A program made the translations under genes and the position numbers. Under the pieces are notes generated by a model. The model saw only the letters and a list, made by a program, of their open reading frames with translations. It did not search any database and was not told the DNA's origin. From a virus, in the IMG/VR virus record IMGVR_UViG_3300048818_000230, positions 1 through 64,000 of that record: DNA of 64,000 nucleotides, one strand, 5' to 3'. Below are positions 22,311 to 58,165 of this stretch, piece by piece. Position 1 is the stretch's first letter. Each line of letters starts with the position of its first letter.

Positions 22311-22311
22311 G

Positions 22312-27300: not shown

Positions 27301-29164
27301 CCTCGGCATCGACGTAGAAGCGCTCCGTGAGCTTCTGCCGACACTCGACGACGAGGGCAAGCGCCGGCTGCTGAGCAAGATCAACGTTCTTACGAAGGAT
27401 AAGCGTGGAACGCCAGCGGAAGCCGCGCGCCGCATTCCGACGACCGATGATGAACTTCATGCCTTTATCCTGCGGGAGACTGGCTACGACATCCCACGCG
27501 TTGCCGTATGCCCTGATCATCAGGCACCATTTGACTTCGTCGCAGATGCTTTTTTTGAGCGTTATGACGCGCTGTTTCTCTTAGGGTCACGCAGCTTGGG
27601 AAAAACGATCTCAGTCTCTCTAGTGCACTGGGTAAATGCTGAGGTGAGACCGGGCGCGACCGCATGTACGTTCGGCGCTATCGAATCACAGGCAGAGCGT
27701 GCTTACGCTCACGTGAAGTCGTTCGTGTATACGACCGACATGAACGGCCACAAGACACTAAACCCTCAGATGGTCGGTGAACCGCTGCGCAAGAAGACCG
27801 AATGGAAGACTGGTTCGACCATAGAAATTCTGGTTGGGTCGAAGAGCGGCGTGAACTCGCCGCATCCGCATAAGGTGCATGCAGACGAGGTTGACCTCAT
27901 GGACGAGGAAGTTTGGAACGAGAGTAGGTCGATGGCCAGCGGTAGTGTGGTAAATGGAAAGCGCATCGCGGCGCAAAACTTTGCGACCTCTACGCTGAAG
28001 TCAGCTAACGGTCTAGTGGCTAGCATTCTCAAGGAATGCGCGGATTCAGACGAGAAGGGATTTGTTCCTCCTTGGAAAATTTACCGGAGCTGCTGTTTTG
28101 AGAGCGCTGAGGAAGTTCCCAACTGCCAGTGCGCTCCAGAGGATGAACGTAGAGCGCGTCTAACGGAGCTGAATCTGGACCCAGATAGTCGTTGCGAATG
28201 TGACAGAATTGTGAAAGGTGAATGGGGTGAGGACAACCCTCGCACACTCGCCTCGGTATGCAAAGGCAAGTTTTTTCGCTCGCGTGGTTGGATGGTTCAC
28301 AACGACGTGATGCAGAAGTTCATGCAGAACACTCGCATCGTCTGGGACGCGCAGATGGAATGTCGTCGCCCGATGGCTGATGGGCTCTACCTTGAAGGAT
28401 GGGTCAGAGAACGGTTTTGCGTGAAGAATTGGGCGCCGAAGCCTGAGTACGGGAGCGTGTTTACTGCGACTGACTGGGGAGGCGGTGCGGAGAGCGCTGT
28501 CCTTTGGATACAAGGCCCGCTGCGTGTGCCTGTGCAGATTGCCGGAGTTGGTGGTGAACTGGTGACTGTCCCGAAGGGAGCGCACGTTACCTTCGACGAA
28601 TACCTCAAGGCTGGTATCGGAGCAACGAAGCTCGCCGACGAGGTATGCGCCCGAGAGGTCTACTGGCGACGTAGGGTCCAAGGCTTCCGAGTTGCAGCGC
28701 GCTTCGCCGATATGGCAGGGCGCCAGCAACGTGACGATTGGCGTGAGCACACTCCGCCGCTGCGCACCGTCTGGTGGCTCAGCTCGCGTGACTTCGATCC
28801 GCAAGTTGAGTCGCTTCAGGATCTGGTTGGCGACGGCCACTACTGGGTGGACATCGATCGTTGCTCTCGTCATTGCGACGATATCGAGTCCTGGAGACAG
28901 AAAAATGGTAGAGAAATTCACGACGCCTCGAGCCATTCCTGCGCTGCGGCGCGCTACGGCCATGCGTCGATAGTTTCGCGCGAGTTGCGGCGAGGTAACA
29001 GGGAGCAAAGCAGAGCTGTGGATCCGGTGGTTGTCCAACGCGGTGAAGCTAGCGCACCGTCCGCTATGGCTCACGCCGGTGATGGTTTTGATGGCGAGCG
29101 CCGTTGGCGTGAGCAGGTAGGGCAATACTTCCCCGATAGGAGCCCAGGCCCATGGCAACGATAA
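27281..29164 (+). CDS. terL: terminase large subunit
   Basis: Walker A LLGSRSLGKT, Walker B KVHADEVDLMDE, C-terminal nuclease-like region. Followed by the portal gene. Confidence 0.85.
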   Translation: MSTTTNSLGIDVEALRELLPTLDDEGKRRLLSKINVLTKDKRGTPAEAARRIPTTDDELHAFILRETGYDIPRVAVCPDHQAPFDFVADAFFERYDALFLLGSRSLGKTISVSLVHWVNAEVRPGATACTFGAIESQAERAYAHVKSFVYTTDMNGHKTLNPQMVGEPLRKKTEWKTGSTIEILVGSKSGVNSPHPHKVHADEVDLMDEEVWNESRSMASGSVVNGKRIAAQNFATSTLKSANGLVASILKECADSDEKGFVPPWKIYRSCCFESAEEVPNCQCAPEDERRARLTELNLDPDSRCECDRIVKGEWGEDNPRTLASVCKGKFFRSRGWMVHNDVMQKFMQNTRIVWDAQMECRRPMADGLYLEGWVRERFCVKNWAPKPEYGSVFTATDWGGGAESAVLWIQGPLRVPVQIAGVGGELVTVPKGAHVTFDEYLKAGIGATKLADEVCAREVYWRRRVQGFRVAARFADMAGRQQRDDWREHTPPLRTVWWLSSRDFDPQVESLQDLVGDGHYWVDIDRCSRHCDDIESWRQKNGREIHDASSHSCAAARYGHASIVSRELRRGNREQSRAVDPVVVQRGEASAPSAMAHAGDGFDGERRWREQVGQYFPDRSPGPWQR

Positions 29165-32100: not shown

Positions 32101-33684
32101 CCCAACAACCACAAGGTCGTCTCAGTCGAGTACGCCGGCGTCGCAGAGGTCTGGGATATCATCATGGATGCTCCGGCGCACTGCAAGAACTATGTCGCCG
32201 AGGGCGTCGTCGTCCACAACACTTCGAGCCGCCTGATCGCCACTCAGCTCGGCGAGGTCTACCAAGAGTCTCAGCAGTTGCTGCTTGACGGCTGGGATGC
32301 CTATGTATCCGAGCACATGTTCCCGCAGTTCATCGCGGCGAACTTCCCGGAGAAGATTGGCACTCCCTGTCGGCGTGTCTCGAGCGGTCTCGGCGCGATC
32401 GACGAGCAGCTTCGCCAAACCGTGCTGACGTTGATCGGTCAGGTTCGAGGCAACGTGCTGCCTGTCGATATGCGCACGTTGCTGGCGCAGAGCGGAATCC
32501 CGCTGCTCAACGAGGCGCAGATGCGCCAGGAAATGAAGAACATCGCTGAGCTTTCGGCCGCCACAGGACCACCCGTTACTCCTCCTTCTGGGCAGGGACT
32601 CCAGGGTTACAACGCCGGTGTCGAACGCGTTGGCGTCGTGCGCACGCCGATGGGCGAGTCCCGTTATGAGACTCGTTACTTCCAACCGCCGCAGAGGATC
32701 CTTCTGGCCGAGTCCGATGGCTTCATGAATGAGCTGCCAGACACTCCCCACTACCGCGATGCCGGAGTACGCTCGGCGATCGTGCGGCTACGGAGGCTTT
32801 TCGTCGAGCGCTACAGCGATCAGTACGCCTCGTTCGCGAAGTTCTTGGAGGCTCAGCCAACCCTTCATCTCGCTGACGCTACGCAGCCGCAGGGCGTCTC
32901 TCAGGGCAACGCCAAGACAGCAGCAGCCGCGATCATCGCTGCGTGGGCTGCTGCGAATGCTCCTGGTGTCGTCGGCTCTCCGATCGAGGCGATCGGGACC
33001 GCAGGATCGACGGCGGCGAAGATGTCAGACCTCATCGGCAAGATCGGGCTCGCTGGTGGTGTCGGCGCACTGAAGGGAGCTCGACTCGACGCTGAGGACT
33101 TCGGCGCCGGCGTCTTGAAGCCGTGGGTGCAGCAGCGAGTCGGTAGCTCGCTCTCTTCGATCGACGATACCGTGCGTTCAGAAGCACAGAACTGGCTCGA
33201 GGATCAGCTCCAGCAGAGCGTGGATCCGCGCGCGGTAGCTGCTGCAGCCAAAGAGCACTTCGCTGATTTTCCGGCTACCCATGCTGATCGTGTGGCTCGT
33301 ACGGAAGTCCGCGATGCCTACAATCGCGGCACGCTCGAGGCTCTTCATCTCGCCGGCGTCGAACAGGTCCAGGCTCACGATGCTTCCGATGGCTCGAACG
33401 AGTTGACCGACGCTGAATGTCTGGCCAGAGACGGCAAGATCATGGGCGTGCAAGACGCGATGAGCGCTGATGAACACCCGAATGGGACGCTGTGGTTCAG
33501 CCCGCTCTCGACTGATCATCTGCGCGTCGAGCGCGTCGACGAGCTGCCGCTGCACCTCGACCAGAACGGTGCTCAGGTTGCCTACGACTCGCGCGAAGAG
33601 ATCCTCTACCTCCTGAGCGACGTCGACGCTGAGCATGAACGCATGTATCTGCTCATGCTGGGCGACCAGATCAGCTATCGCTGA
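29152..33684 (+). CDS. portal protein (Mu gp29/DUF935-like) fused to a MuF-like head morphogenesis domain, interrupted by two inteins
   Basis: Follows TerL. Extein is 885 aa after removing the inteins. C-terminal HADRVARTEVRDAYNRG...ECLARDGKIM...HPNG resembles the Phage_Mu_F domain. Confidence 0.75.
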   Translation: MATISVGDLASLDPVLTQATEGPSPTQEKVIEATNAVGIKTRVAEAAAAGPTTRQRTQSEILDLELVRWRRNDPFSVRHIPFDQLREMTTDLMLGFGWFFTVAPLCRADWLIECPDAQLAAAVDAAFRPISTATYLNFSNVLWYGHQPLVKRFKLAKLGGYYRDPQAADPSKDIPIWTSSADALLWKTPMAVNPSHCLPMWDDDGDMIGFKFSTLPIPNFDLISAASAYGYMVISGSVIDDDYALWPTNEAELNFGSIYGSPRTKRAYRYWWCNPPETPILMSDYTLRPLGSIEEGDEIIGWEPKMGRRASGLYAPRVCMTKSIVTAVSKRAKQKMVKVTFESGHVIRCTPNHVWNLHPTAQNNVRPGRDSEWGVVEVGREISRVIDLHAGERPFIYEALDEEQQIAANWLGGLYDGEGSGAFIGQSESHNGPVRERMKESLDLLGFQYTCNPDSFWIKGGREELMRFARLTRPTRVYAMDRLIIDNNSASGGGFRFRRPDKIVSIEPDGEDVAIGLTTTTGNYIAWGLASKNSYWYRWALADRAFENHVDPAKIVYYPTDFEEFLDSEDNPTNQITLAREKAIRLGEATRSGATIALPADFIEGPDGKPTSARKWEITPYASGQQHFSDLDQTFAHLDTLKLRAWLIPEQAFIEGRGACLLKTTLILAPRDHDLYPDGIPMEELKDGQLVWSYNEHEARFQLWPIKEVGPTKTDDVFKLTLDNGQTITGTADHPFMRRDGRWTTLALLKPGDSLMPLYEKIDHEKQYNGKPIKEGDSEPWIAVGPGKIYTPEFRAVGDHFGWTRQGQGFGIHHKDERHANSSIENLVFLTNGAHTAEHFKNPEFAARHSELGSAAMAEFQAGNTPVENFEFASARSQKGWDNGRTKQRWKDKACATCGTMFTPNSARQKYCADHSAKIQKNEATPYQGRIKTPRPYKLKDCIDCGNAFYPTSGVQKRCEECQVAYKKNFSRDRRLAEISDNAPNNHKVVSVEYAGVAEVWDIIMDAPAHCKNYVAEGVVVHNTSSRLIATQLGEVYQESQQLLLDGWDAYVSEHMFPQFIAANFPEKIGTPCRRVSSGLGAIDEQLRQTVLTLIGQVRGNVLPVDMRTLLAQSGIPLLNEAQMRQEMKNIAELSAATGPPVTPPSGQGLQGYNAGVERVGVVRTPMGESRYETRYFQPPQRILLAESDGFMNELPDTPHYRDAGVRSAIVRLRRLFVERYSDQYASFAKFLEAQPTLHLADATQPQGVSQGNAKTAAAAIIAAWAAANAPGVVGSPIEAIGTAGSTAAKMSDLIGKIGLAGGVGALKGARLDAEDFGAGVLKPWVQQRVGSSLSSIDDTVRSEAQNWLEDQLQQSVDPRAVAAAAKEHFADFPATHADRVARTEVRDAYNRGTLEALHLAGVEQVQAHDASDGSNELTDAECLARDGKIMGVQDAMSADEHPNGTLWFSPLSTDHLRVERVDELPLHLDQNGAQVAYDSREEILYLLSDVDAEHERMYLLMLGDQISYR
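29968..30750 (+). mobile_element. intein 1 in portal (261 aa), single LAGLIDADG-like motif, penultimate Lys
   Basis: CNPPETPILMSDYT (block A), RCTPNHVW (block B), WLGGLYDGEGS, DVAIGLTTTTGNYIAWGLASKN then +1 Ser. Confidence 0.7.
31129..32220 (+). mobile_element. intein 2 in portal (364 aa) carrying an HNH endonuclease and Cys4 zinc-ribbon repeats
   Basis: CLLKTTLILA, GTADHPFM (block B), GIHHKDERHANSSIENLVFLTNGAHTAEH (HNH), CATCG...CADH and CIDCG...CEEC, EGVVVHN then +1 Thr. Confidence 0.8.
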
Positions 33685-39566: not shown

Positions 39567-39794
39567 CTAGTAGACGCGCGGGAGATCCCCGTCGTCTCGT
39601 CTCTCGATCGAGCGCCTGCGGTTAGTCACCGCATCAAAGGCGCTCGATCGCTTTACTGGCTTGCCCAGCACCTCGATCTTCGCGCCGTTGCGCAGAAGCG
39701 CCGGATCCACGAAGCGAACCGTCATCTCGTGGTAGCGACCTTCGAGTTCTGCGAGCTCACGGATGGCGCGGTTCATGACCTGAGTGCTGTTCAT
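39567..39794 (-). CDS. hypothetical protein
   Basis: Internal ATG (MNSTQVMNRAIRELAELEGRYHE...), 75 aa. Confidence 0.4.
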   Translation of the reverse strand: MNSTQVMNRAIRELAELEGRYHEMTVRFVDPALLRNGAKIEVLGKPVKRSSAFDAVTNRRRSIERRDDGDLPRVY

Positions 39795-47800: not shown

Positions 47801-48000
47801 CTCTTCACCGGCCTTCCCGCAATTATCCCGACGCCGCCGATAAGCACCAACACACCAATCGAAGCATGTGCCAACAAACCAATACCGACGATAACAGCGA
47901 CAAGACCAACCATGAAGGCTACGCCGGCGATAGTGTCGCTACGAGATTCGCGCTTCGATGGCATCTCTCGGCCTCCATTGGTGACACTCATGAGCGCCAC
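47797..48000 (-). CDS. small membrane protein
   Basis: Two helices (IAGVAFMVGLVAVIVGIGLLA; VLVLIGGVGIIA). Confidence 0.45.
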   Translation of the reverse strand: MALMSVTNGGREMPSKRESRSDTIAGVAFMVGLVAVIVGIGLLAHASIGVLVLIGGVGIIAGRPVKR

Positions 48001-49046
48001 CGATCACAGATAGTCTGAATTTCAGCCGAATTCACAAAAGCACCTTGGAAACGCACACACGGCGCACCACCCATAGAGAACAGACCGTCACCATTACCCA
48101 AAAGTGCCTCGGCACCATTCTTGTCAAGAGCTACCCTAGAGTCTGTCATCGAACTCACTCGAAAGCAGATCCGTGAAGGGATGTTAGCTTTCAGTAATCC
48201 AGTGAAGATTTGCACTCTAGGTGATTGTGTCGCTAATACAAGATGGATGCCGACAGCGCGAGATTTCTGAGCCAACCGCACGATCAGCGACTCACTCTCC
48301 TTGCGGCTGCTCATCATCAGATCGGCCAGCTCGTCGATTACGACGACGATGTACGGACAAGGTGCGTATCCGGCAGCCTCGAGTTTCGTGTTGAACTCGG
48401 GTAACGAGCGCGCGGAAAACTTCTGCATGACGTCGTAGCGCATCTCCATGAGCTTGACGGTAGAGCGCAGACGAGCAAGCGCCGAGTCGACATCAGTGGC
48501 GATTGGCGCGAGCAACTGACTGATGCCCTCATAAGGCGCCAGCTCGACTTGCTTGGGATCGATCAGCACGAGACCAAGCTCATCGGGACCAAAGCGGCTC
48601 AGAAACGAGCAGAGCATGGCGTTGATCGCGGCACTTTTCCCAGAGCCAGTTTCGCCCAGAATGCCTAGATGCGGCGATTCGGCGAGGTTGCAGAAGATCG
48701 GGTTGCCATCCATATCCGGACCGAGCGGGAAGCTCAGCGGTTCAATCGGTGGCGGCATCGCGGCAAGATGCTCGATCCTGCGGTCGTTGCGTGCAACCTC
48801 GACGCCGATTTCGCCGGCTTTCCCAGCTAGCGGTGCCAGGATCTTCACGCGCGCTCCCAGCGCGAATTCCAGATCGACGCCCATGCGGTTGTACTCGCGC
48901 ATTCGCATCGGGGTAGACGGTTTCAGCTCGAAACGGTCTGACTGCGGCCCTGCAACGGTGCGCAGGAGCTCGCAGGAGCCACCGAGAGCGTCAAGAGCGC
49001 CCAAGAGCACGTCTTCCCTCGATGGTTCCGCGAGAACGGCGCTCAT
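47988..49046 (-). CDS. FtsK/SpoIIIE-family DNA translocase ATPase
   Basis: Walker A LGILGETGSGKSAAINAM, Walker B YIVVVIDELADLMM, HLVLATQSP. Confidence 0.85.
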   Translation of the reverse strand: MSAVLAEPSREDVLLGALDALGGSCELLRTVAGPQSDRFELKPSTPMRMREYNRMGVDLEFALGARVKILAPLAGKAGEIGVEVARNDRRIEHLAAMPPPIEPLSFPLGPDMDGNPIFCNLAESPHLGILGETGSGKSAAINAMLCSFLSRFGPDELGLVLIDPKQVELAPYEGISQLLAPIATDVDSALARLRSTVKLMEMRYDVMQKFSARSLPEFNTKLEAAGYAPCPYIVVVIDELADLMMSSRKESESLIVRLAQKSRAVGIHLVLATQSPRVQIFTGLLKANIPSRICFRVSSMTDSRVALDKNGAEALLGNGDGLFSMGGAPCVRFQGAFVNSAEIQTICDRWRS

Positions 49047-49270
49047 GACGTCTCCGCATTGCGGTTGCGTATACGGAATTCGTAGGTGAAGTGCGGCATT
49101 CCGGCCTCATAGATGAACTTCCATCCCATCGTCTTGTAGATAGCTTGATCGGCGAGCGGGCCGGGAATGGGTAGCAGCGACAGACCGACGATAAAGCGCA
49201 GCGGCTTAGGGATGCGCTTGTCGCGAGCTACGATCTTCGCGGCTCTGATTGCGCGCTTGATCTTGCTCAT
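49043..49270 (-). CDS. hypothetical protein
   Basis: 75-aa ORF, ATGA-coupled. Confidence 0.4.
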   Translation of the reverse strand: MSKIKRAIRAAKIVARDKRIPKPLRFIVGLSLLPIPGPLADQAIYKTMGWKFIYEAGMPHFTYEFRIRNRNAETS

Positions 49271-49506
49271 GCCTCTCTCCTCTCTGCCGGTTCGTACGCG
49301 ACGATGCGAACGGACAATGGGTCGATTCTCTTGCCGTCGACCAAAATCCCAAAGCCGACGAGCGCGGCATCGAGTAGTGCTCTGTGCTCATCAGTCAGAC
49401 CGTTCACGCGGCCATTCTCGATCTCGCGCGCAAGATCCTCGTGGCCGTCATTGCGAAGACGCTCCACAAACTCTGTCACGCTTGGACGGGTAGGTTCTGT
49501 GCTCAT
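49267..49506 (-). CDS. hypothetical protein
   Basis: 79-aa ORF, ATGA-coupled. Confidence 0.4.
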   Translation of the reverse strand: MSTEPTRPSVTEFVERLRNDGHEDLAREIENGRVNGLTDEHRALLDAALVGFGILVDGKRIDPLSVRIVAYEPAERREA

Positions 49507-49829
49507 CGGTTTGTTGCTCGGATCTCGTTCAGCATTGCTCGCTTCTCGTCATCTAGGCGATCCCGGTCGATCTCGAAATACTCGGCCAGAATGCGGTCGA
49601 TTGTCCGGTACGTCGGGTGCCATTCGGTGATTCGGACGACTCCGTCAACGGCGATCGCTCCAAATGGCAGTAACTGCGTGGTCATCGTGAGCGGCGGTTG
49701 AGGCTGATGCAGGATCCTCTCGCGCGGCTTGATCCCGCAAGCGATCATGTCTGCTTGAGCATCTGCTCTCGTCAGCGGAGGCTTTTGCGGCGCTGCTAGG
49801 ACTTCAAGTTTTGGCGTGGCTCGATCCAT
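49503..49829 (-). CDS. hypothetical protein
   Basis: 108-aa ORF downstream of the promoter at 49897-49925. Confidence 0.4.
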   Translation of the reverse strand: MDRATPKLEVLAAPQKPPLTRADAQADMIACGIKPRERILHQPQPPLTMTTQLLPFGAIAVDGVVRITEWHPTYRTIDRILAEYFEIDRDRLDDEKRAMLNEIRATNR

Positions 49830-49896
49830 CGATTGATCGTCTCCATTCGTCTCGTGGGTAGAACGCGGCTAGTCGACCGCGCCAAATCTACTAGCT

Positions 49897-49925
49897 AGCT
49901 TACCGATGCTCGGTAGCTCCGTCAA
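49897..49925 (-). promoter_or_regulatory. promoter TTGACG-N17-TAAGCT followed by AGCTAGTAG
   Basis: Counted on the minus strand. Confidence 0.45.
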
Positions 49926-49958
49926 GTGCTGCGAAAATCCCTGCTATGCCGCGAAGGA

Positions 49959-50093
49959 TCAACCCATGATTCCACTTCTGTAGAGGTCTGCTCGGACGGC
50001 CATCGTCTCACGACGGACCAGGGCAAACTGTTGATCCGTGTTCAGCGGTCGCTTAGGCGGTATCGGCTTGGGTTGCTTCTTGGCTGGCTTCAT
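49959..50093 (-). CDS. 44-aa basic protein (below ORF-track cutoff)
   Basis: Manual translation MKPAKKQPKPIPPKRPLNTDQQFALVRRETMAVRADLYRSGIMG. ATGA overlap upstream. Confidence 0.3.
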   Translation of the reverse strand: MKPAKKQPKPIPPKRPLNTDQQFALVRRETMAVRADLYRSGIMG

Positions 50094-50353
50094 GCGCTTC
50101 TCCCCTCCGGATCACTCGGCAAAATTCCGCCAGGCGCGTTATAGCGTGCTATCAGCTCTTCGCAGAGGGCAGGGAACGCGCGATATAGCGCGTCTGCGTT
50201 ATACGTGTCCGCCTGCCGGAACGCTGCCATAATCAGGGCATAGAACGGCAGATCATCGGAAATCAGTTTGCGCGAGATTTTGTAGTCGTAAAGGCTCACT
50301 GCGTCGTCTCCTCGGCGATCGGCACGTACTTCAAACCCAAAGAGACGTACCAA
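50090..50353 (-). CDS. hypothetical protein
   Basis: 87-aa ORF. Confidence 0.4.
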   Translation of the reverse strand: MVRLFGFEVRADRRGDDAVSLYDYKISRKLISDDLPFYALIMAAFRQADTYNADALYRAFPALCEELIARYNAPGGILPSDPEGRSA

Positions 50354-50522
50354 TGACCGTTGCGGTGCGCTCGTCCAGCACGCCTATGGCGCGTATATAG
50401 CAACTATTTTTGCACGCCTTGGAAAATCTGTGGGCATTGATTGGCGACTCAAACGCCCAAATCTCCGGCTCGGTGTCGTCATTGTCCACAATTACTAGGT
50501 AGACGCTCATTGCTTCGCTCAT
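50331..50522 (-). CDS. hypothetical protein
   Basis: 63-aa ORF. Confidence 0.4.
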   Translation of the reverse strand: MSEAMSVYLVIVDNDDTEPEIWAFESPINAHRFSKACKNSCYIRAIGVLDERTATVIGTSLWV

Positions 50523-50716
50523 CTCTCAGCCTCCTTATCGTGTCGCGCGTAATCGACAAACTGCCGTCTGATCTTGTCCAGCGTCGAGCATTGCCAACCG
50601 GCCGCACAAGATCGAACGGCCATCAGCTCATCATCTGTCATCGTCGGCGCGATCTTGCACGTACATGTGAGACGTGCGTCTAGAATCGCTTGGATTGAGT
50701 CTGTGCGCGCGCTCAT
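50519..50716 (-). CDS. hypothetical Cys-rich protein
   Basis: Internal ATG 50716 overlaps the upstream stop. MSARTDSIQAILDARLTCTCK... Confidence 0.35.
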   Translation of the reverse strand: MSARTDSIQAILDARLTCTCKIAPTMTDDELMAVRSCAAGWQCSTLDKIRRQFVDYARHDKEAER

Positions 50717-50985
50717 GCATGTTTCGGGGTAGTAGGATCGTTCGCTAGCGCTGTGTCGACCATATCGGCGACGATTACGATTGTGTCGGCGTTCCATTCG
50801 TAGTAATCGTCACCCGTTGAATAATTCGGATGATCGGCTACTTGCTTAGCCGGGTAGATCTCCGGGTAGAGGTAGCGATGAATCTTACGCAGCGCCGCTA
50901 GCGCTTTCAATCCGCGCTCGATCTCTTTGTGCTCGGCGTTTGCAAAAGCATTGTCGCTGATCCTCTTACCATAATCGTCAGTCAT
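50713..50985 (-). CDS. hypothetical protein
   Basis: 90-aa ORF, ATGA-coupled. Confidence 0.4.
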   Translation of the reverse strand: MTDDYGKRISDNAFANAEHKEIERGLKALAALRKIHRYLYPEIYPAKQVADHPNYSTGDDYYEWNADTIVIVADMVDTALANDPTTPKHA

Positions 50986-51455
50986 CGTGTCTCCTCTCTC
51001 AGCTCCGCATTCGCTAGGACATATGCCAGCGCGTCCTCGAGACTTTCATGCGTGCAGTGGTAGTAGATTCCATCCTTGGCGGATCGCACGGAGATATGTG
51101 CTTGCACGCTCACGCCTAGTGGCCGCGGCTTATAGATCATGTCGCCATCGCTGCGCTCACAAATCAGCCGGTAGCGTTCCTCCGTCCGTTCCGTATTCTC
51201 GCTCGCGCATAGACCGATCTCGCTATTGCGGCCGATCCCGTCGACCTCATGCGTTTTCAGCCAAGCGCCGCCAGAGAGCCGGTCGGAATTGAAGCGGATC
51301 ACAACGGGTAGACCGTAGGCATCGCGCAGCATCTCTGCGGCGCGCTGTACGGTCGCGTCAAGCTCATCGCTACGGCCGCTATAGCCTCCTCCGACAATCG
51401 CGGGTAGCGTGCCGATGCTCACGACCAGGCCAGCGCTACGTTCGATCTCGCTCAT
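50982..51455 (-). CDS. hypothetical protein
   Basis: 157-aa ORF, ATGA-coupled. Confidence 0.45.
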   Translation of the reverse strand: MSEIERSAGLVVSIGTLPAIVGGGYSGRSDELDATVQRAAEMLRDAYGLPVVIRFNSDRLSGGAWLKTHEVDGIGRNSEIGLCASENTERTEERYRLICERSDGDMIYKPRPLGVSVQAHISVRSAKDGIYYHCTHESLEDALAYVLANAELREETR

Positions 51456-51568
51456 CGCCGCTTGCCCCCGTACTTTTCCGCGCGGGTAGCCTTGCGCTCG
51501 ATAGTCGTCGCTCGTGCATCGCGTGAGCGCTTAGGGTCGGAGGGTTGGTAGTCATTTGTCTTGCGCAT
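51452..51568 (-). CDS. 38-aa basic protein
   Basis: Internal ATG of ORF-track 51452..51745: MRKTNDYQPSDPKRSRDARATTIERKATRAEKYGGKRR. The upstream part is Arg-rich junk. Confidence 0.3.
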   Translation of the reverse strand: MRKTNDYQPSDPKRSRDARATTIERKATRAEKYGGKRR

Positions 51569-51656
51569 AGTCGTGCGCTCCTGTCTCGTCTCATTGCCGC
51601 TCGGTAGTGAGCGGGTGAGAGGATTCGACTCGCGCCAAATCCTCGCATCCGTTCCG

Positions 51657-51911
51657 CTACTTGCCAAATACTGTCTTGGGTACGGGGTCGCCAGTTTTCC
51701 AGCGCGACGTTCCGAACGCATAGAACACCGCGCGCGAGTTTGCATCCTGCGCCAAGCGCGTCCCGCGCTTGACGTTCGCTAGCGCTTCGCCGTGCGTGCT
51801 GTACGGACCGAGCAGGAAACCAGTGCGGCCAGCATCCCGCACGGTCACATAGAACAGGCGCGCTGTAGTTCCTGGAGGGATTGCGCGAGCTCGCTGGACT
51901 AGATCGCTCAT
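51657..51911 (-). CDS. hypothetical protein
   Basis: 84-aa ORF with normal composition. Confidence 0.45.
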   Translation of the reverse strand: MSDLVQRARAIPPGTTARLFYVTVRDAGRTGFLLGPYSTHGEALANVKRGTRLAQDANSRAVFYAFGTSRWKTGDPVPKTVFGK

Positions 51912-52237
51912 CGTGGCACCCCGAATGCTTGGCGCAGCTCGCTTTCGCGCTTAGCGTCGATCTTGCGCGCGCTGAGCAGTCGGCGGCTATGTCCGCCCCA
52001 TTGACGAACTGAGCCATGATCTAGGTCGCGGATGAATCCGTGGCCGAAGTCGGCGCCGTCGACAATCTCCGCCAGGGAAACGCAGCGGTGAGCATTCCAG
52101 CGCGTTACGGCGCCGAGAATCGTCCACTTGCCACTGTAGTTCCAGCCGCGCGGACCATCGGAACGCGCGACGACATCGCCGCTATCAGTCAACAGATAGC
52201 GCGTATGGTCTCGTGTCGTCAGCTCGATCATCGCCAC
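51908..52237 (-). CDS. hypothetical protein
   Basis: 109 aa from GTG 52237. Alternative ATG 52231 overlaps the stop of a 23-codon mini-ORF (52228..52299) that follows the conserved leader. Confidence 0.45.
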   Translation of the reverse strand: MAMIELTTRDHTRYLLTDSGDVVARSDGPRGWNYSGKWTILGAVTRWNAHRCVSLAEIVDGADFGHGFIRDLDHGSVRQWGGHSRRLLSARKIDAKRESELRQAFGVPR

Positions 52238-52323
52238 ACCGCGATGTAGTTCGGTCGCACGATTCGGACTTCCTTGGGTGGTTTTGCTTTTGTGCGCATC
52301 GTCTCGTCTCTCTGTTTGGACTT

Positions 52324-52384
52324 GGCATCGTCAGACGCGGGCAGTCAATCCCGCGCGACGCCGCATAAGCGGCGTTTCGCCTAT
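52324..52384 (-). ncRNA. type II hammerhead ribozyme candidate HH-1 (one extra U after A9)
   Basis: AGGC-GAA-ACGCCGC-UUAU-GCGGCGU-C(52357)-GCGCGGG-AUUGACUG-CCCGCGU-CUGACGA-U-GCC, read on the minus strand. Confidence 0.55.
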
Positions 52385-52554
52385 AGCTCGGTAACGTCTT
52401 CGCGCATATGGCGATTGCGGTAGTTCACGACGGCATCGGCAATCTTGCGATCTTCGAACGTGTCATAAACCACGCTATCGCGGACCACTTCATAGACCCG
52501 ATCGGTGCCAGATACGCGGGCGAATCGCTCCTGTACGTACCACTGGTCGGTCAT
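52381..52554 (-). CDS. 57-aa protein (below ORF-track cutoff)
   Basis: Manual translation MTDQWYVQERFARVSGTDRVYEVVRDSVVYDTFEDRKIADAVVNYRNRHMREDVTEL. Preceded by a 28-codon ORF (52551..52637) with ATGA overlaps. Confidence 0.35.
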   Translation of the reverse strand: MTDQWYVQERFARVSGTDRVYEVVRDSVVYDTFEDRKIADAVVNYRNRHMREDVTEL

Positions 52555-52633
52555 AGCTGCCCCTTTCTATGCTCAGCTTCGCCGAGCGCGTACAGGAGAC
52601 CGCTCAGCGCTTGCAGGATGCGTTTCCGCTTGC

Positions 52634-53014
52634 TCATACCGGGACGCACACTCCCTCATTGCCCCAGTCGTCATAGAGCGAGCTCCATTCGCCCGGCGCC
52701 GTGATCTTGACCGTGCATCCGCGCGGATCGCCCTGGAAGACGACGCCGAACGGGCCATCGTCGGTCGCGGGCAAATCCTGCACGAGCGAGCGAATGCGGG
52801 CCTCGATCTTCTCTTCGCGCGCATCAGCGCGATTCGACGCCGCTTCATCCCAGCTACCGTCATACGTCTGATAGCCGTTACACGCTTGCTCCTGGAGTCG
52901 ATGATGCGTTGTCGCGTGCCTGCAAATCAGCGAGCAAGTCTCGGTGATCGCCCGTGTGGTACCGATTGCCGGCGCTAGCTTGAACGCCAATTCACGACCT
53001 TTATTCGTCGCCAT
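52634..53014 (-). CDS. hypothetical protein
   Basis: 126-aa ORF with normal composition. Confidence 0.45.
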   Translation of the reverse strand: MATNKGRELAFKLAPAIGTTRAITETCSLICRHATTHHRLQEQACNGYQTYDGSWDEAASNRADAREEKIEARIRSLVQDLPATDDGPFGVVFQGDPRGCTVKITAPGEWSSLYDDWGNEGVCVPV

Positions 53015-53132
53015 AATCTCGTCTCTCTCTAGTTTGTGGAATCGGCCGGAAAGTCACTCCGGCAAGCCGCATGATCTCATCCGATGAGAAAGCCTCGCGC
53101 TCTAACGCATGCGGCGACAGTCTTAGGGTCGG

Positions 53133-53477
53133 TCAGTCGGTCGCCTCCGTGTCTGCGTTGTAGATATTGCGGCGCGTCGTGATTGGATCTCCGTCCGCGG
53201 TTGCTTCCATGAAACGGTCAATTCTGGCGTTCGCGTCGAATTGCCCGACTGTCACGAGAAACGCGCGCACAGTCGAAAGCTCCGCGACCGCCTGCTCTAG
53301 ATCGCGCGCGACGAGCTCAAGCGATGCGTTTAGGTCGTGCCCGTAGCCGTCGCGGATAGCGCCGTATTCGCGGATCTCGTCAATACGCATTCCGGCTACC
53401 TTCGCCGCGACTCCGGCCGTTCCCAGCCAATCGCGCACACTTCCACCGTTAGACATCTTGCGGTCTAGATCAGTCAT
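53133..53477 (-). CDS. hypothetical protein
   Basis: 114-aa ORF. Its ATG lies 12 nt after HH-2. Confidence 0.45.
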   Translation of the reverse strand: MTDLDRKMSNGGSVRDWLGTAGVAAKVAGMRIDEIREYGAIRDGYGHDLNASLELVARDLEQAVAELSTVRAFLVTVGQFDANARIDRFMEATADGDPITTRRNIYNADTEATD

Positions 53478-53489
53478 CTAATCGTCTCC

Positions 53490-53557
53490 CTGTTAGCTCA
53501 TCAGCGCGAGATAGTCTGTCTCGCGGACACTCGCTCTAGCGCGAGTGTTTCGCTCAG
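53490..53557 (-). ncRNA. type II hammerhead ribozyme candidate HH-2 (fully canonical core)
   Basis: CUGAGC-GAA-ACACUCGC-GCUAGA-GCGAGUGU-C(53526)-CGCGAGA-CAGACUA-UCUCGCG-CUGAUGA-GCU-AA-CAG, read on the minus strand. Confidence 0.7.
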
Positions 53558-53802
53558 TCGGTCGGTAGAAACGTGCTCGATATCGAGCAATCTTGAGTCG
53601 AAGTCGTCACGTGCGGTACGCCTAGTAGCTCGGTGTCAGTGCCGACATACGGGCCGCTCACGCGGAGCTGTATCGTCCAACCGCGCCGATACTCGATGAT
53701 TCGACCAGTTGGGAACCCGTGCGCTTGCGCGTGCTCGACTGCATCCGCGCGTGTAGCGAAGTAGCGGATGCCCTTATGTAGCTTGCTCGTCTGCTCAGTC
53801 AT
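53554..53802 (-). CDS. hypothetical protein
   Basis: Internal ATG (MTEQTSKLHKGIRYFATRADAVEHAQAHGF...) with an 8-nt overlap onto the upstream gene. Confidence 0.4.
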   Translation of the reverse strand: MTEQTSKLHKGIRYFATRADAVEHAQAHGFPTGRIIEYRRGWTIQLRVSGPYVGTDTELLGVPHVTTSTQDCSISSTFLPTD

Positions 53803-54028
53803 CGCTACTCGCAGTCTGTAGAAAGCCGAATGCGCCGCAGTAGACCGCAACGTGAGTCCACTTCGCGCCTGTCACCGTATAGACGTTGTAAGTCTCGGCC
53901 GGATCAGTCCGGCGCTGGAGCATGTAGCGCGTGCAAGTAGCGAGCGATTGATAGTTGCCCGCGACTGTGCCGAGCGAACCTAGTCGGTCGCGACCGTTTG
54001 CGTCTGTCGGTCGCGCTATATAGCGCAT
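53795..54028 (-). CDS. hypothetical protein
   Basis: Internal ATG (MRYIARPTDANGRD...), 2 nt after the upstream stop. Confidence 0.4.
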   Translation of the reverse strand: MRYIARPTDANGRDRLGSLGTVAGNYQSLATCTRYMLQRRTDPAETYNVYTVTGAKWTHVAVYCGAFGFLQTASSDD

Positions 54029-54030
54029 CG

Positions 54031-54219
54031 CTACAGCTCCTCTGCGTAGTTGTGGACGGGATAGCAATGCTGCGCGGAGAATGCGTCAACCCGCGCGATG
54101 AAGTCGTCGACAACGTCGTGAGAGCGCTCGATATACGGGCGCGCGCAAGGATGATCGTCTGTATCGACGGCCGGATAAGGAACGTATACCGGCCACTCGC
54201 TAGTCAATGTCTGTACCAT
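54031..54219 (-). CDS. hypothetical protein
   Basis: Start MVQTLTSEW follows the conserved leader CAGAGAGACGAGACG directly after HH-3. Confidence 0.4.
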   Translation of the reverse strand: MVQTLTSEWPVYVPYPAVDTDDHPCARPYIERSHDVVDDFIARVDAFSAQHCYPVHNYAEEL

Positions 54220-54242
54220 CGTCTCGTCTCTCTGTCTCGCTT

Positions 54243-54299
54243 GGCTCGTCAGTGCGGGAGTCACCCGCAGACGGCGCTACTGCGCGCCGTTTCGCCCTA
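54243..54299 (-). ncRNA. type II hammerhead ribozyme candidate HH-3
   Basis: GGGC-GAA-ACGGCGC-GCAGUA-GCGCCGU-C(54270)-UGCGGG-UGACU-CCCGCA-CUGACGA-GCC, read on the minus strand. Confidence 0.65.
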
Positions 54300-54560
54300 T
54301 GCGAAGATGGATTCGTCGTGAGTCAACGCCCAGACAATCTGCTCGTCAGTCGCGTCCATAGCGTTGAGCGCGCTAGCAGCACCAGGGACGCCGCACAACG
54401 TCGTCCAACGGCCGATGAATTCGTACATACCGGGACCAGTGACGATGATCGTCGGCTGCTCCTGATCGGCCAGATTCGAGCCGTGCGCGTTCGGCCGGCG
54501 CCGAACAATGAAACGGCCTCGCTTCGTCTGAACCTCGCCGGATGAATCACTCTCAGTCAT
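54297..54560 (-). CDS. hypothetical protein
   Basis: 87-aa ORF. Its stop codon lies inside HH-3 stem II. Confidence 0.45.
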   Translation of the reverse strand: MTESDSSGEVQTKRGRFIVRRRPNAHGSNLADQEQPTIIVTGPGMYEFIGRWTTLCGVPGAASALNAMDATDEQIVWALTHDESIFA

Positions 54561-54671
54561 CGTCTAGCCTCTCTGCCGCTAGTCAAGCGGCCCTGCTTAG
54601 TCTCTCGCGATCAGTGCTGCAAGGCCACGCACGCGCTACAGCGAGCGCCGTGCGGGCCGAAGATCAGTCGT

Positions 54672-54833
54672 TCAGCGCTCTGAGTCGAACCTTTGCGCGA
54701 GCGCGATAACTTCCGCGCGCATCGTCTCATTGTGGAAGCGCTCATCTAGTGTCTTGCGGAGCGCCCAAGCGATCAGACCGGCTTCGCGCTCAGAGACACC
54801 AGTGATCGGCGCCGGAATACTCTGCTCAGCCAT
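54672..54833 (-). CDS. 53-aa protein, first gene of the operon (below ORF-track cutoff)
   Basis: Manual translation MAEQSIPAPITGVSEREAGLIAWALRKTLDERFHNETMRAEVIALAQRFDSER. Leader GGGAGACGATGAGCG upstream. Confidence 0.35.
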   Translation of the reverse strand: MAEQSIPAPITGVSEREAGLIAWALRKTLDERFHNETMRAEVIALAQRFDSER

Positions 54834-54891
54834 CGCTCATCGTCTCCCTAGATCGTCTCTCGCGCTAGTCTCACGCGCGTCTGATAGATGG

Positions 54892-54919
54892 ATCATACAC
54901 ATCTACATAGCTACGTCAA
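54892..54919 (-). promoter_or_regulatory. promoter TTGACG-N16-TATGAT for the minus-strand small-gene operon
   Basis: Counted on the minus strand. An AT-rich tract (CTTTTATTAGAAG) lies just upstream. Confidence 0.45.
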
Positions 54920-55518
54920 GGCTACTGTGATCACTTCTAATAAAAGGCTTTCGCCAGAGGGAAAGCACACCGCAGACAGGCGCTCAGCCATTGCTACGTA
55001 CTGATGCGAGACCTACTGTCGACGGAGAGCGGGAGAATCGCTCAGACCGCGCCGAAAGACTCTCTCTCAACCTTCCGGCCCTCTCAGTCACTACCTAGAG
55101 CGTGTCTCGTGAGTGCTCTAGCTTGTTTCACCGGACATAAGTGCTTGCGCTAGCTAGCAGTCTCTCTGTCACCTTCGCGCACTGCCGGCCGCGCGTACAA
55201 AACCCTGGACGCCGGAGCTCGGTCACCGGAAAGTATGTGATCCGATGTCCAAGAGAGCCCCGCCAACACTGAACGCGAACGCGGATTGAGAATCCCCCGA
55301 CCCTCCCCAGGGGTCTGCCTCTTGGCCATGCCGGCGCGCGATTCGACCCCGGATGGTAGACAGCTTGAGAACTCGCCAACAGAGCATTCCAACTCGCTCA
55401 GCAGAGGTCGTGTCATCGCTCAGAAGCGCATTGCGATGAGGAAGAGCTGCCCGAGCAAGCACCTACGCCGGCTATCAGAGCAGTGCTCTACTGACGGTAG
55501 GAAGGGGTCTGAGAGGGT

Positions 55519-55558
55519 CTTCGGGCCGATCTGGGAGGATTTCGGCCGATTTAGGGCC
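55519..55558 (+). repeat. tandem TTCGG(G)CCGATnTnGGG repeat inside the 0.95-kb non-coding region
   Basis: ttcgggccgatctggg / ttcggccgatttaggg. GGGTCT recurs at 55311, 55505, 55515 and 55645; GAGGATTTCG recurs twice in the region (within 55531-55550 and near 55701). Confidence 0.45.
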
Positions 55559-55831
55559 TTTTCGACGAGGTGCGTTTCGACAAAGTCCCTGCATAGCGTG
55601 GGTTTTGACCCCCTCTGTGCTCGGATCCGGCTACCCCTCCCCTAGGGTCTTCTACCGGCTGAGTCCTCTTGCGCAGATTCCTCCGGCGGAATCTGAGATT
55701 TTCGAGGATTTCGCTACTCCCTCTATGTATGAGGAAGCTAAGTATTTAGCTCGATGCTATTGCTCAGATGAGCATCGCCACGAAGATCTGCCTAAAGTGC
55801 GCGATCACTCTGCGATGACTAGCTTCCGACC

Positions 55832-55860
55832 TTGCTGTCTGGAGAAGCTGCTGCTAAGCT
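55832..55860 (+). promoter_or_regulatory. promoter TTGCTG-N17-TAAGCT followed by GATCTAGTAGG
   Basis: Counted directly, upstream of the 55906 operon. Confidence 0.45.
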
Positions 55861-55905
55861 GATCTAGTAGGTAGGTTCTTGGCGGCTACTGGGGAAGGAG
55901 TTGTT

Positions 55906-56427
55906 GTGGGCGAGCCTGAACGTTGGGACATGGACGAGCGAGAGCTTGCTTGGGTGGAGGGGATTACCCGCAGTGGCCTGGACTTGAACTTCTTCCATGC
56001 CGAACAGTGCATTCTCCGTTTGCGCGAGGTCGATGCTTTCTCTGACGCGCAGGCTCTGTCAGACCGCGCGGTCTTCCGCATCCGCTGCCGCTGTACCGAT
56101 GTCCTCGCCGTCGACCTCGAGCGTATGTGTGTGCAGCTTGTGCCGCGGACGAGAGTGCTCGAACTCAAACAGATCACAGAGCCGGCCGCTGCCGACAAGA
56201 TCACAGTCACTCCTGCAGGAGTGTTTCCCGGCGAGGATCCCAACATTGCCGCAAGTGAACTTAGTGAAGACGAAGTCCGCGCGTTGTTACAGGGCGCGAC
56301 GATTACCGAGTTGGTCGAGCATCTGCATCCCGTCGAGGGTGATCGTCTCCAACTGACACTCGCAAGCGGCTACTCCGTGCAGATCGCTGCTCAGCGTCTA
56401 CGATTGAGCGCGGTGAAGATCGCGTGA
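55906..56427 (+). CDS. hypothetical protein
   Basis: GTG after GAAGGAG, 173 aa. Confidence 0.45.
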   Translation: MGEPERWDMDERELAWVEGITRSGLDLNFFHAEQCILRLREVDAFSDAQALSDRAVFRIRCRCTDVLAVDLERMCVQLVPRTRVLELKQITEPAAADKITVTPAGVFPGEDPNIAASELSEDEVRALLQGATITELVEHLHPVEGDRLQLTLASGYSVQIAAQRLRLSAVKIA

Positions 56428-56436
56428 GCACGTGTA

Positions 56437-56835
56437 TTGCGCGTCGCTGCAGGTACCAGCACGGCCTCGAGCATGGGCTGTGTGCTTACCACCGCGCGTA
56501 CGCAAAAGGCCGGAGGGACCGAAAGCATGGTTGCTGGGCAAGATCGCTTTGTGGATAGCTCCGTGGTTGGCATGAGCGACGAACACCAACTGCCGAGTAT
56601 GGGGCAATCCGCCAGTCGAGAATTGATCTGCGGCATCGTGTCCGAGTCTGGACCGAACCGTGAGCCGCTTGCGTGTGGCTACAAGAAGGGCCACGTCGGG
56701 GCGCATGCGTGGTACTCGCTGCCGACGTTTGTCAATGGCGAGGCCCAGGAGGTGCGGGCTCTCAGGGCGCGTTTGGCCCAGTCGGAGTGGATTGTCTGCG
56801 CTGAGGCCGAGCGCATGCTGGGGCCAACCCCGTGA
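56437..56835 (+). CDS. hypothetical protein (start uncertain)
   Basis: ORF-track frame. ATG 56527 has GGAGGG upstream. An alternative 44-codon Cys/His-rich ORF (GTG 56424..56558) overlaps the 5' part. Confidence 0.35.
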   Translation: MRVAAGTSTASSMGCVLTTARTQKAGGTESMVAGQDRFVDSSVVGMSDEHQLPSMGQSASRELICGIVSESGPNREPLACGYKKGHVGAHAWYSLPTFVNGEAQEVRALRARLAQSEWIVCAEAERMLGPTP

Positions 56836-56919
56836 GCCGCCGATCCGAGGACTCAGTGATTGAGCCGGGCCAGGTCTACGAGGCGCGGCGATGACCGGCC
56901 GCCGAAACGGAGCGTCACG

Positions 56920-57210
56920 ATGAGCTCCGACAACTGGGCGATCTGCCCTCGCTGCCTTGCCCAAGCAAAGGAGGCTTTCGGCGCGGAGGTCGCGCGCGTC
57001 GGTGCGATGTACGGCTCCGTGCCGATCGAGGAGTTCGATGCGGCGCGCGATGCGATCAAGGCCGTCGACCCTGAGGAGTACCGGACGTTCCGTGAGGACT
57101 ACGAGTTCTACGGGGCGGAGGAAGGCGAGATCACGGCCGACTACTCGGGTCATTGCAGTAAGTGCGCCCTCGGACTTGACTTCAAGGAAGCGAGGAGGTT
57201 CTATCCATGA
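56920..57210 (+). CDS. zinc-ribbon protein
   Basis: MSSDNWAICPRC...GHCSKC (CxxC...CxxC). Confidence 0.45.
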   Translation: MSSDNWAICPRCLAQAKEAFGAEVARVGAMYGSVPIEEFDAARDAIKAVDPEEYRTFREDYEFYGAEEGEITADYSGHCSKCALGLDFKEARRFYP

Positions 57211-57506
57211 GCGAGCGCCGCCAAAACGAGGCGTTGCGATTCGCCGATTTCGAGTACCCGCAGGACCCTGGCTACGCCAAATGGCCGACCGATGACGGCT
57301 ACGACGCTTGGATGGTGATGACACCCGACCGCTGCCTGTTCATGCTGGCGAACCCCGGCTCGAACATCGGCGGCGCTGTGCATGAGGTCGAGGAGCACGA
57401 GGACGGCACGATCACCGTCGAGCCGCGCCCCGGCAACTCAAACTCGATCCTTTCGCCGAAGGGCTGGCACGGCTACATCGATCACGGCGTTTGGAGGGCC
57501 GCATGA
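57207..57506 (+). CDS. hypothetical protein
   Basis: 99-aa ORF, ATGA-coupled. Confidence 0.45.
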   Translation: MSERRQNEALRFADFEYPQDPGYAKWPTDDGYDAWMVMTPDRCLFMLANPGSNIGGAVHEVEEHEDGTITVEPRPGNSNSILSPKGWHGYIDHGVWRAA

Positions 57507-58165
57507 CCGGCCGCCAAAACGCAAGCTCGCGTCCTCGGATTTTGGACCTGTTCTGCTGCCAAGGCGGCGCAGCGATGGGCTACCACAACGCAGGCTTCGA
57601 GGTCGTCGGTGTGGACATTGATCCGCAGCCGCACTACCCCTTCGAGTTCTGGCAGATGGATGCCCTCACATGGGGCGATTGGGACTTCTTCGACGCGATC
57701 CACGCTTCTCCGCCGTGCCAGCGCTACTCGAAGGCCACGCACCTGCGTGGCTACGAGCACCCGGACCTGATCGCGGCGACGCGCGAGCTGCTGATCGCCT
57801 CCGGTCTGCCCTATGTGATCGAGAACGTCGAGGGCGCTCGCGATGAACTGGTCGATCCGGTGATGCTGTGCGGCTCGATGTTTGGGTTGCGCGTCTATCG
57901 GCACCGCTACTTCGAGACGAACTTCTCGCTCACCGCGCCGTGGCACCCGAAGCACTGGCTGCGCCAGGTGAAGATGGGCAGGCCGCCGGCGTGGGACGAG
58001 ATCCATCAGCCCGTCGGCAACTTCTCGGCAGTCGACGAGGGCCGCGAGGCGATGGAGATGCCGTGGGCGTCCAGAGACGGGCTGCGCGAGGCGATCCCGC
58101 CGCGGTATGCGGAGCACGTTGGCGGGCGCCTGATGGCCCACCTACTGAGGGAGGCTGCGGCATGA
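57491..58165 (+). CDS. DNA (cytosine-5)-methyltransferase, short form
   Basis: Motif I ILDLFCCQGG, motif IV ASPPCQRYS, motif VI YVIENV. Confidence 0.75.
   Translation: MEGRMTGRQNASSRPRILDLFCCQGGAAMGYHNAGFEVVGVDIDPQPHYPFEFWQMDALTWGDWDFFDAIHASPPCQRYSKATHLRGYEHPDLIAATRELLIASGLPYVIENVEGARDELVDPVMLCGSMFGLRVYRHRYFETNFSLTAPWHPKHWLRQVKMGRPPAWDEIHQPVGNFSAVDEGREAMEMPWASRDGLREAIPPRYAEHVGGRLMAHLLREAAA

Follow-up and report, generated by a model that had tools for sequence, protein, structure and literature searches.

A predicted type II hammerhead ribozyme with a one-base insertion after A9 in an operon of small genes from a phage-like genome

Arrays of hammerhead ribozymes around prophage genes were described in 2011, and one triple was found to cleave in vivo (Perreault et al., PMC3088659). 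Ribozymes of the type II class (Rfam RF02276) combine the hammerhead core with capped stems I and III, an open stem II of 3 bp and a pseudoknot that uses bases past stem II, and they are found between the genes of phage operons, where copies flank short gene blocks (PMC3088659). Type II hammerheads usually dock stem I onto stem II via this pseudoknot, which pairs loop I with the 3' tail, and the docking contact is required for fast cleavage at physiological Mg2+ (PMC3088659). It has been proposed, and is unproven, that polycistronic phage transcripts are split in this way into units of unlike stability or translation (PMC3088659, PMC6765202). Here we analyse HH-1, a predicted type II hammerhead on the minus strand of the IMG/VR virus record IMGVR_UViG_3300048818_000230 (positions 1 to 64,000; this whole 64,000-nt stretch is referred to as the window). 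HH-1 shares all of the structural features listed above and a comparable setting. It differs from the type II consensus in an unpaired U between the core residue A9 and the stem II base G10.1, for which Rfam has no column, and its neighbourhood differs in that the surrounding genes are open reading frames (ORFs) without known relatives (ORFans).

One extra nucleotide at the identical place is found in the plus-strand hammerhead of CChMVd (chrysanthemum chlorotic mottle viroid). According to PMC3705267 and PMC1636495, the natural insert is an A (A10), which lies between A9 and G10.1, causes a moderate drop in rate and has a second role in viroid folding. The same papers summarise that De la Pena and Flores (2001) found that C or G at position 10 is strongly detrimental, whereas U increases the trans-cleavage rate 3-4-fold. 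On this account the viroid ribozyme keeps its activity with the extra nucleotide, and U is the most favourable base. The viroid ribozyme belongs to type III and relies on tertiary contacts of the loop-loop kind, in contrast to HH-1, which is of type II, belongs to a DNA phage and features a pseudoknot. The minimal hammerheads of Penelope-like retroelements (PMC4209133) differ from HH-1 in being eukaryotic type I ribozymes with a long stem II, a minimal stem III, dimeric action and an unrelated context.

Structure and class membership of HH-1

A cmscan search with the Rfam Hammerhead_II model (RF02276) matched HH-1 end to end with all core positions intact, at a score of 45.2 bits (E = 5e-6), which exceeds the curated gathering score of 37 bits. 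In this alignment, one inserted 'u' follows CUGACGA, where the Rfam consensus has no column. A covariance model obtained from 24 viral hammerheads that carry an insert, none of them from the window (model R1), gave 47.3 bits (E ~2e-12), and here U52327 falls in a consensus column. Rejection of the alignment by cmsearch, which the reading made earlier from the sequence alone (the sequence-only reading) had named as grounds for abandoning HH-1, did not occur with either model. The elements of HH-1, listed below from 5' to 3' after the entire ribozyme, were assigned from the sequence, with the cmscan alignment for the core residues and C17 and a structure evaluation for stem III.

52315-52382, minus strand: HH-1, the entire type II hammerhead with its 3' tail (RF02276 match; the R1 match spans 52312-52382)
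52379-52381, minus strand: stem II, 5' strand GGC (11.3-11.1)
52375-52378, minus strand: core residues G12, A13 and A14 (52378-52376), followed by A15.1 (GAAA)
52358-52375, minus strand: stem III hairpin ACGCCGC-UUAU-GCGGCGU, 7 bp, including the base pair A15.1-U16.1
52357, minus strand: C17 of the GUC triplet, with the predicted scissile bond at 52357/52356
52335-52356, minus strand: stem I hairpin GCGCGGG-AUUGACUG-CCCGCGU, 7 bp, in which loop I covers 52349-52342
52343-52346, minus strand: pseudoknot arm GACU in loop I, forming 4 contiguous pairs with AGUC at 52322-52319
52328-52334, minus strand: core residues C3 U4 G5 A6 C7 G8 A9 (CUGACGA)
52327, minus strand: extra unpaired U between A9 and G10.1 (insert in the cmscan alignment, consensus column in model R1)
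52324-52326, minus strand: stem II, 3' strand GCC (10.1-10.3)
52319-52322, minus strand: pseudoknot arm AGUC in the 3' tail, one base past stem II, at the position of the class consensus (PMC3088659)

The core is complete, as evidenced by the C3 U4 G5 A6 N7 G8 A9 box, the GAA residues, the A52375-U52358 pair and a C at position 17, where any base except G is accepted (H17). Stems I and III are capped by loops and stem II is open, its 3 bp being formed by both ends of the RNA, which is the type II permutation. The pseudoknot that links loop I and the 3' tail (GACU/AGUC) has 4 bp, in keeping with most type II members, in which it measures 4 bp or more. The canonical G10.1-C11.1 pair (G52326-C52379) is present, and the single bulged U52327 that precedes it sets it apart from A9. 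Stem I is closed by the pair G52356-U52335. The sequence-only reading had rendered the letters and the structure of the minus-strand RNA exactly, and its type II call, GUC site, G-U closing pair and one-base insert agree with both the sequence and the cmscan result. The range it gave, 52324-52384, exceeded the ribozyme by two bases at the 5' end and omitted the 3' tail. An assembly error is not the source of the extra U, because a contig from a separate run and assembly (Logan contig L001) is 100% identical over 241 aligned bases that span the ribozyme and the mini-ORF downstream of it.

Two additional hammerheads are present on the same strand of the window.

53488-53555, minus strand: HH-2, type II hammerhead with no insert and no detectable pseudoknot (Rfam 36.1 bits; R1 24.2 bits)
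54239-54297, minus strand: HH-3, type II hammerhead with no insert and no detectable pseudoknot (Rfam 35.9 bits; R1 25.2 bits)

R1 alignments of HH-2 and HH-3 feature a deletion at the insert column. Both copies score just under the gathering score, and default Rfam annotation would skip them. Rather than the odd or weak copy, HH-1 is the best-scoring of the three, and it alone exceeds the gathering score and has a pseudoknot. HH-2 and HH-3 share the loop I GACU with HH-1, but candidate pseudoknots in these copies were rejected, as their tails allow no more than 2 contiguous pairs and AGUC is absent nearby. The pseudoknot accounts for the top score of HH-1 despite the penalty for the insert. 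HH-2 and HH-3 may dock stems I and II in an alternative manner, or may cleave slowly. A fourth hammerhead was considered at 7704-7769, the best extra R1 match in the window (15.2 bits, E = 0.02), and was rejected because it lacks a CUGA box. A permissive Rfam scan of the window (E up to 10) revealed nothing notable beyond the three hammerheads.

The base between A9 and G10.1 in viral hammerheads

Hammerheads carrying an extra base after A9 are conserved across viral genomes. A pattern scan of IMG/VR for this insert class (GGCGAAAC..GUC..CUGANGA-H-GCC) returned at least 146 matches in at least 119 stretches. In 108 of the matches listed, stems III and I consist of 4 bp or more each, while fewer than one such well-formed match is expected by chance according to our estimate. 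Stem III extends to 11 bp and stem I to 10 bp in the copies listed. The inserted base varies among the well-formed copies (at least 108) and is a U (87 copies), an A (18) or a C (3). This natural order, U > A >> C, agrees with the order of biochemical tolerance given for CChMVd in PMC3705267.

The frequency of the insert was estimated from a second scan of IMG/VR, which left the 3' side open and was blind to the insert. Among the matches listed, 59 well-formed copies have GGC as their 5' strand. Of these, 48 are canonical, 9 carry a one-base U insert (~15%) and 2 have another stem II; the proportion is rough, as it refers to the matches listed only, some contigs contribute several copies, and both scans are assumed to have read the records in the same order. 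The insert is also polymorphic. For instance, the ribozymes of contigs L043 (CTGACGATGCC) and L082 (CTGACGAGCC) are near-identical and differ solely in the base after A9, and the same holds for those of L048 (CTGACGAAGCC) and L154 (CTGATGAGCC). Such differences point to recent gain or loss of the insert.

When stem II was relaxed to any complementary triplet, 133 distinct insert-class copies were identified, featuring GGC/GCC, GCC/GGC, GAC/GUC or GUC/GAC pairs, and stem II thus covaries around the insert in viral copies. In an ungapped alignment of 24 copies, 93% of the cells are paired and 15 pairs are changed on both sides, and none of 500 shuffles was as good. Covariation spans stems I, II and III and the central pairs of the pseudoknot. 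Because the stems had been partly pre-filtered, the test is more independent for the pseudoknot and stem II.

Contiguity of A9 and G10.1 is therefore not a defining feature of the class, given that a bulge is carried by about 15% of the viral members sampled among the matches listed. U52327 appears to be a bulged, frequent, polymorphic and tolerated natural variant of the junction between core and stem II, rather than a lesion or a mark of decay. Because the extra U is common and tolerated, HH-1 is, as judged from its sequence, a well-formed type II hammerhead and an ordinary addition to a known class. Taken alone, it is a further phage type II hammerhead among thousands in the class, and its arrangement is of a kind described in 2011. 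What is modestly new is the frequency of the insert (in a small sample of listed matches) and its bias towards U, as viroid biochemistry predicts. As a consequence for annotation, covariance models that lack an insert column under-score the copies that bear one.

Position between genes, proposed role and alternatives

The junction in which HH-1 is embedded comprises the following features.

52381-52554, minus strand: upstream gene encoding a 57-aa protein (ORF list; no match in PHROGs), the TAG stop of which occupies 52383-52381, so that G52381 doubles as the first base of stem II
52300-52315, minus strand: leader ACAGAGAGACGAGACG, 16 nt, a translation initiation region resembling a ribosome binding site, identical to the sequence behind HH-3 (54235-54220)
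52228-52299, minus strand: mini-ORF of 23 codons, MRTKAKPPKEVRIVRPNYIAVWR, with ATG at 52299-52297 and a TGA stop at 52230-52228 (ORF list; residues 6-22 conserved)
51908-52231, minus strand: gene encoding a 107-aa protein, an ORFan (ORF list), the ATG of which (52231-52229) overlaps the TGA of the mini-ORF (ATGA)

The coordinates that had been read from the sequence for the conserved leader, the ATG at 52299 and the 23-codon ORF overlapping the ATG at 52231 were all correct. Each of the three ribozymes in the window starts inside the stop codon of the preceding gene (TAG, TGA and TAG), and the next start codon lies 24 (HH-1), 17 (HH-2) or 23 nt (HH-3) past stem II. The three copies are thus on the same strand, each between a stop and a start codon, in a window that features phage-type genes, as in the arrays described earlier. 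The same placement is a rule for the class. An ORF stop occurs within -20 to +10 of the ribozyme 5' end in 78-85% of viral copies, versus 21% at control (random) positions, with a peak at -5 to +1, and the next start codon follows stem II at a median distance of 25 nt (interquartile range 21-30) in insert and canonical classes alike. This tight spacing of stop, ribozyme and start is, like the insert frequency, modestly new, and can help to choose start codons beside such ribozymes.

HH-1 is likely to be a functional type II hammerhead that lies between cistrons of a long minus-strand operon made up of small genes, in a genome that resembles that of a temperate phage. Folding would be co-transcriptional, stems III and I forming first, after which the 3-bp stem II and the 4-bp pseudoknot would close the core. 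Self-cleavage after C17 (52357) would split a polycistronic early transcript in two. The upstream fragment would carry a 2',3'-cyclic phosphate behind its terminal stem III hairpin, and the downstream one would start at the stem I hairpin, with a 5'-OH, shortly before the mini-ORF's ribosome binding site. Acting together, HH-1, HH-2 and HH-3 would cut the transcript into blocks of a few genes with defined 5' ends, which may differ in stability or translation, and the ATGA overlap at the end of the mini-ORF would hand ribosomes over to the 107-aa gene. Cleavage in vivo, the effect on expression and translational coupling are features that we infer. RiboJ-type synthetic insulators are parts derived from a satellite-RNA hammerhead that are placed directly upstream of a ribosome binding site and fix the 5' end of the cistron regardless of the sequence before them; the position of HH-1 suggests that it might act in a similar manner. 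The combination of a ribozyme, a small ORF and a coupled gene provides a concrete test case for the effect of processing on expression.

Several observations weigh against this interpretation. The nearest relative of this element, contig L233 (61% identity in an FtsK-like protein), has no hammerhead in the syntenic region. Stem II consists of only 3 bp and the pseudoknot of only 4 bp. The ribozyme's 5' part would lie under any ribosome that terminates at the TAG at 52383-52381. Conservation of the mini-ORF, discussed below, is based on 17 codons and two relatives. Lastly, nearest-neighbour calculations for 52390-52300, all of which leave out the energy of the pseudoknot, gave -30.1 kcal/mol for the hammerhead fold, whereas the minimum free energy fold is a different one, at -33.5 kcal/mol, and is thus 3.4 kcal/mol more stable than the knot-free hammerhead. 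In the latter fold, the partner of GGCGUCG, which comprises the 3' strand of stem III together with C17 and the base that opens stem I, is CGAUGCC (from C7 to stem II, including the extra U).

The sequence-only reading had left three options for HH-1, an active variant, a decaying copy or a regulated one, and the evidence favours the first. Under the last of these, HH-1 would be conditional, gated either by the alternative structure or by ribosomes that terminate at the overlapping TAG, which would tie processing to translation of the upstream gene. The alternative structure does sequester C17, and the extra U takes part in a G-U pair in it. Stem II and the stop codon overlap, and stops at -5 to +1 are found class-wide. 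Folding of successive prefixes, however, showed that stems III and I form before the competing 3' strand is transcribed. Moreover, the misfold persists when the U is deleted (-31.4 versus -30.0 kcal/mol for the hammerhead), with a similar relative stability, and the U is therefore not the source of the competition. Alternative folds within a few kcal/mol are common in GC-rich RNA, and no ligand-binding or sensor element was found in the permissive Rfam scan of the window. We consider conditional activity improbable, and the calculated competing fold at most a weak hint of slow or conditional folding, which is no evidence against activity.

Quite improbable, too, is that HH-1 is decaying or inactive, the extra U disturbing the core at A9 and G10.1 and the motif persisting as a stable pair of hairpins between genes. 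This explanation would fit the insert adjoining core residues, the Rfam consensus having no column for it, the closest relative having no ribozyme at this position and the alternative fold lying 3.4 kcal/mol below that of the knot-free hammerhead. It is at odds with the rate increase that an extra U brings about in CChMVd (PMC3705267). The insert is frequent (in ~15% of the sampled viral type II hammerheads among the matches listed, with covarying stems), polymorphic among near-identical ribozymes and, when a U, best tolerated in the viroid, all of which argues against decay. The remaining core residues of HH-1 are intact, and it is the copy with the highest score and the sole intact pseudoknot, which speaks against decay as well.

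The three hammerheads have the same orientation, with predicted C17-C17 spacings of 743 and 1171 nt, and the ends left by hammerhead cleavage can be joined by a ligase of the RtcB type. Excision of 743- and 1171-nt RNAs, followed by ligation into circles or spliced products, is nevertheless highly improbable, as Perreault et al. sought spliced or circular products of prophage arrays and found none (PMC3088659), and the flanking sequences have no complementarity that would bring the ends together.

The mini-ORF, related elements and the surrounding genome

The 16-nt leader is not a part of the ribozyme. Near-copies occur on the minus strand at 54561-54576 (GCAGAGAGGCTAGACG), 53015-53030 (AGAGAGAGACGAGATT) and 39593-39608 (ATCGAGAGACGAGACG), and those at 54576-54561 and 53030-53015 directly precede start codons that have no ribozyme. 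A ribozyme-specific element is thereby ruled out, and the leader is the usual translation-initiation region of the operon; the near-copies look like a translation-initiation sequence shared by the minus-strand genes of this element. In contrast to the ATG of the mini-ORF, the distance of which from stem II is typical of the class, that of the 107-aa gene (52231) lies 92 nt from stem II, with no clear Shine-Dalgarno sequence on inspection. Four-base ATGA overlaps are usual between genes of this operon, as judged from gene calls on L001.

A tblastn search with the 23-residue peptide identified a match in L233, with 82% identity over residues 6-22. The matching segment is the C-terminus of a 47-aa ORF (L233:4153-4296), which likewise ends in an ATGA overlap. 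A third copy, the 46-aa P0002 of the small JGI contig L312, features the same ATGA junction. The downstream genes differ in the window, L233 and L312, yet the position of the mini-ORF is syntenic, since genes for a 79-aa protein and the FtsK-like protein follow in the window and in L233 alike. Over the 17 shared codons, differences at the first, second and third codon positions number 2/2/9 and 4/2/7 (9 of 13 and 7 of 13 at the third position), and the Nei-Gojobori ratio of nonsynonymous to synonymous substitution rates (dN/dS) is 0.08 versus L233 and 0.28 versus L312. In the remaining two frames the pattern is reversed, and most comparisons include an in-frame stop. Because the 17 C-terminal codons are conserved at a dN/dS of 0.08-0.28, the frame looks translated. 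Small as the sample is, this is clearly the frame under purifying selection at the protein level, and it would represent a genuine coding remnant or a small gene. Gene callers had skipped the 23-codon ORF, which is supported by the spacing rule and by conservation in the two relatives. A single gene split into mini-ORF and 107-aa gene by an assembly error was rejected, as L001 is identical and the same ATGA junction precedes unrelated genes in L233 and L312. A search of back-translated VR[IV]VRPNY retrieved only the contig of L233 from IMG/VR, and 34 unrelated or chance matches from the metagenome collection. In L312, a stretch of 834 nt without a called gene (520-1354) lies upstream of the 92-aa and 46-aa ORFs, and no Rfam family matches it at the gathering threshold.

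Relative to the longer form, the mini-ORF of the window lacks the first ~29 codons, and HH-1, the leader and five codons (MRTKA) are found in their place. The 23-codon form may have been truncated, through insertion or recombination, or may be stable as a short version. Homology of the leader and ATG to the L233 coding sequence 5' of the conserved block was rejected, as the 12 identical bases of 20 are indistinguishable from chance. We tentatively propose, while regarding it as rather unlikely, that HH-1 and the 19 nt of leader and ATG, which recur unchanged behind HH-3, form a portable 'junction module' that was recombined into a conserved gene of 46-47 codons, leaving a 23-codon ORF with the C-terminal 17 residues. 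The spacing of ~25 nt from ribozyme to start codon throughout the class, the three different genes found downstream of the same small ORF in three elements, and the sporadic presence of ribozymes among related elements are all consistent with such a module. If it exists, phage type II hammerheads would be natural insulators, supplying each swapped-in block with a standard 5' end and ribosome entry regardless of what precedes it. A mini-ORF coupled to a larger gene right behind a type II hammerhead was observed in 8 of 240 viral copies (~3%); in these (in L034, L152 and L008, for instance), the ORF has 8-37 codons and its stop overlaps or abuts the start of the larger gene.

The FtsK-like gene is shared by elements at 79 loci in IMG/VR. 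In loci L293-L298 (~35% identity in the FtsK-like protein), arrays of 2-4 type II hammerheads are located ~100-1800 nt upstream of this gene. Eleven of these hammerheads exceed the Rfam gathering score, reaching 49.8 bits. As in the window, the arrays mix both forms, the extra U being present in most copies and absent in some, even within one array. These loci, which stem from samples 3300045988 and 3300001525, feature a GUC/GAC stem II and a UGACC/GGUCA pseudoknot. In contrast, no hammerhead was found within 10 kb in the closest FtsK-like relatives (L233-L237, L243 and L244). Since distant relatives have arrays and the closest ones have none, ribozymes appear to be gained and lost sporadically.

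The window looks like part of a temperate phage. It encodes DnaE, DnaB, a primase, a Cas4-type exonuclease, an endolysin, a tyrosine integrase, an FtsK-like ATPase and two intein-bearing ORFs, and its DnaE is ~31% identical to the DnaE proteins of Streptomyces phages. A megablast search of 48000-58000 against GenBank phages gave no match. The three hammerheads are located within a series of small genes, most of them ORFans, on its coding strand, and 9 of 10 neighbouring small proteins have no match in PHROGs. The 57-aa and 107-aa proteins that flank HH-1 have no relative in IMG/VR. When compared with 5.8 billion proteins, the 107-aa protein retrieved one cluster only, the representative of which matches the query at 100% identity; among the contigs with this protein, the longest measures 95 kb. 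A sigma-70-like promoter match was found at 54919-54892, and is weak evidence because two sites were found where 2.7 are expected in shuffled sequence.

Outside the operon, the ORFs at 22234-25191 and 29152-33684 (plus strand; 985 and 1510 aa) contain intein splicing domains, and one of them also has a LAGLIDADG homing-endonuclease domain. The 718-aa ORF at 18408-20564 (plus strand) matches terminase-large-subunit PHROGs at residues 65-430 and a UvsX/RecA-like recombinase PHROG at residues 438-713, and may be a fusion or a mis-joined ORF.

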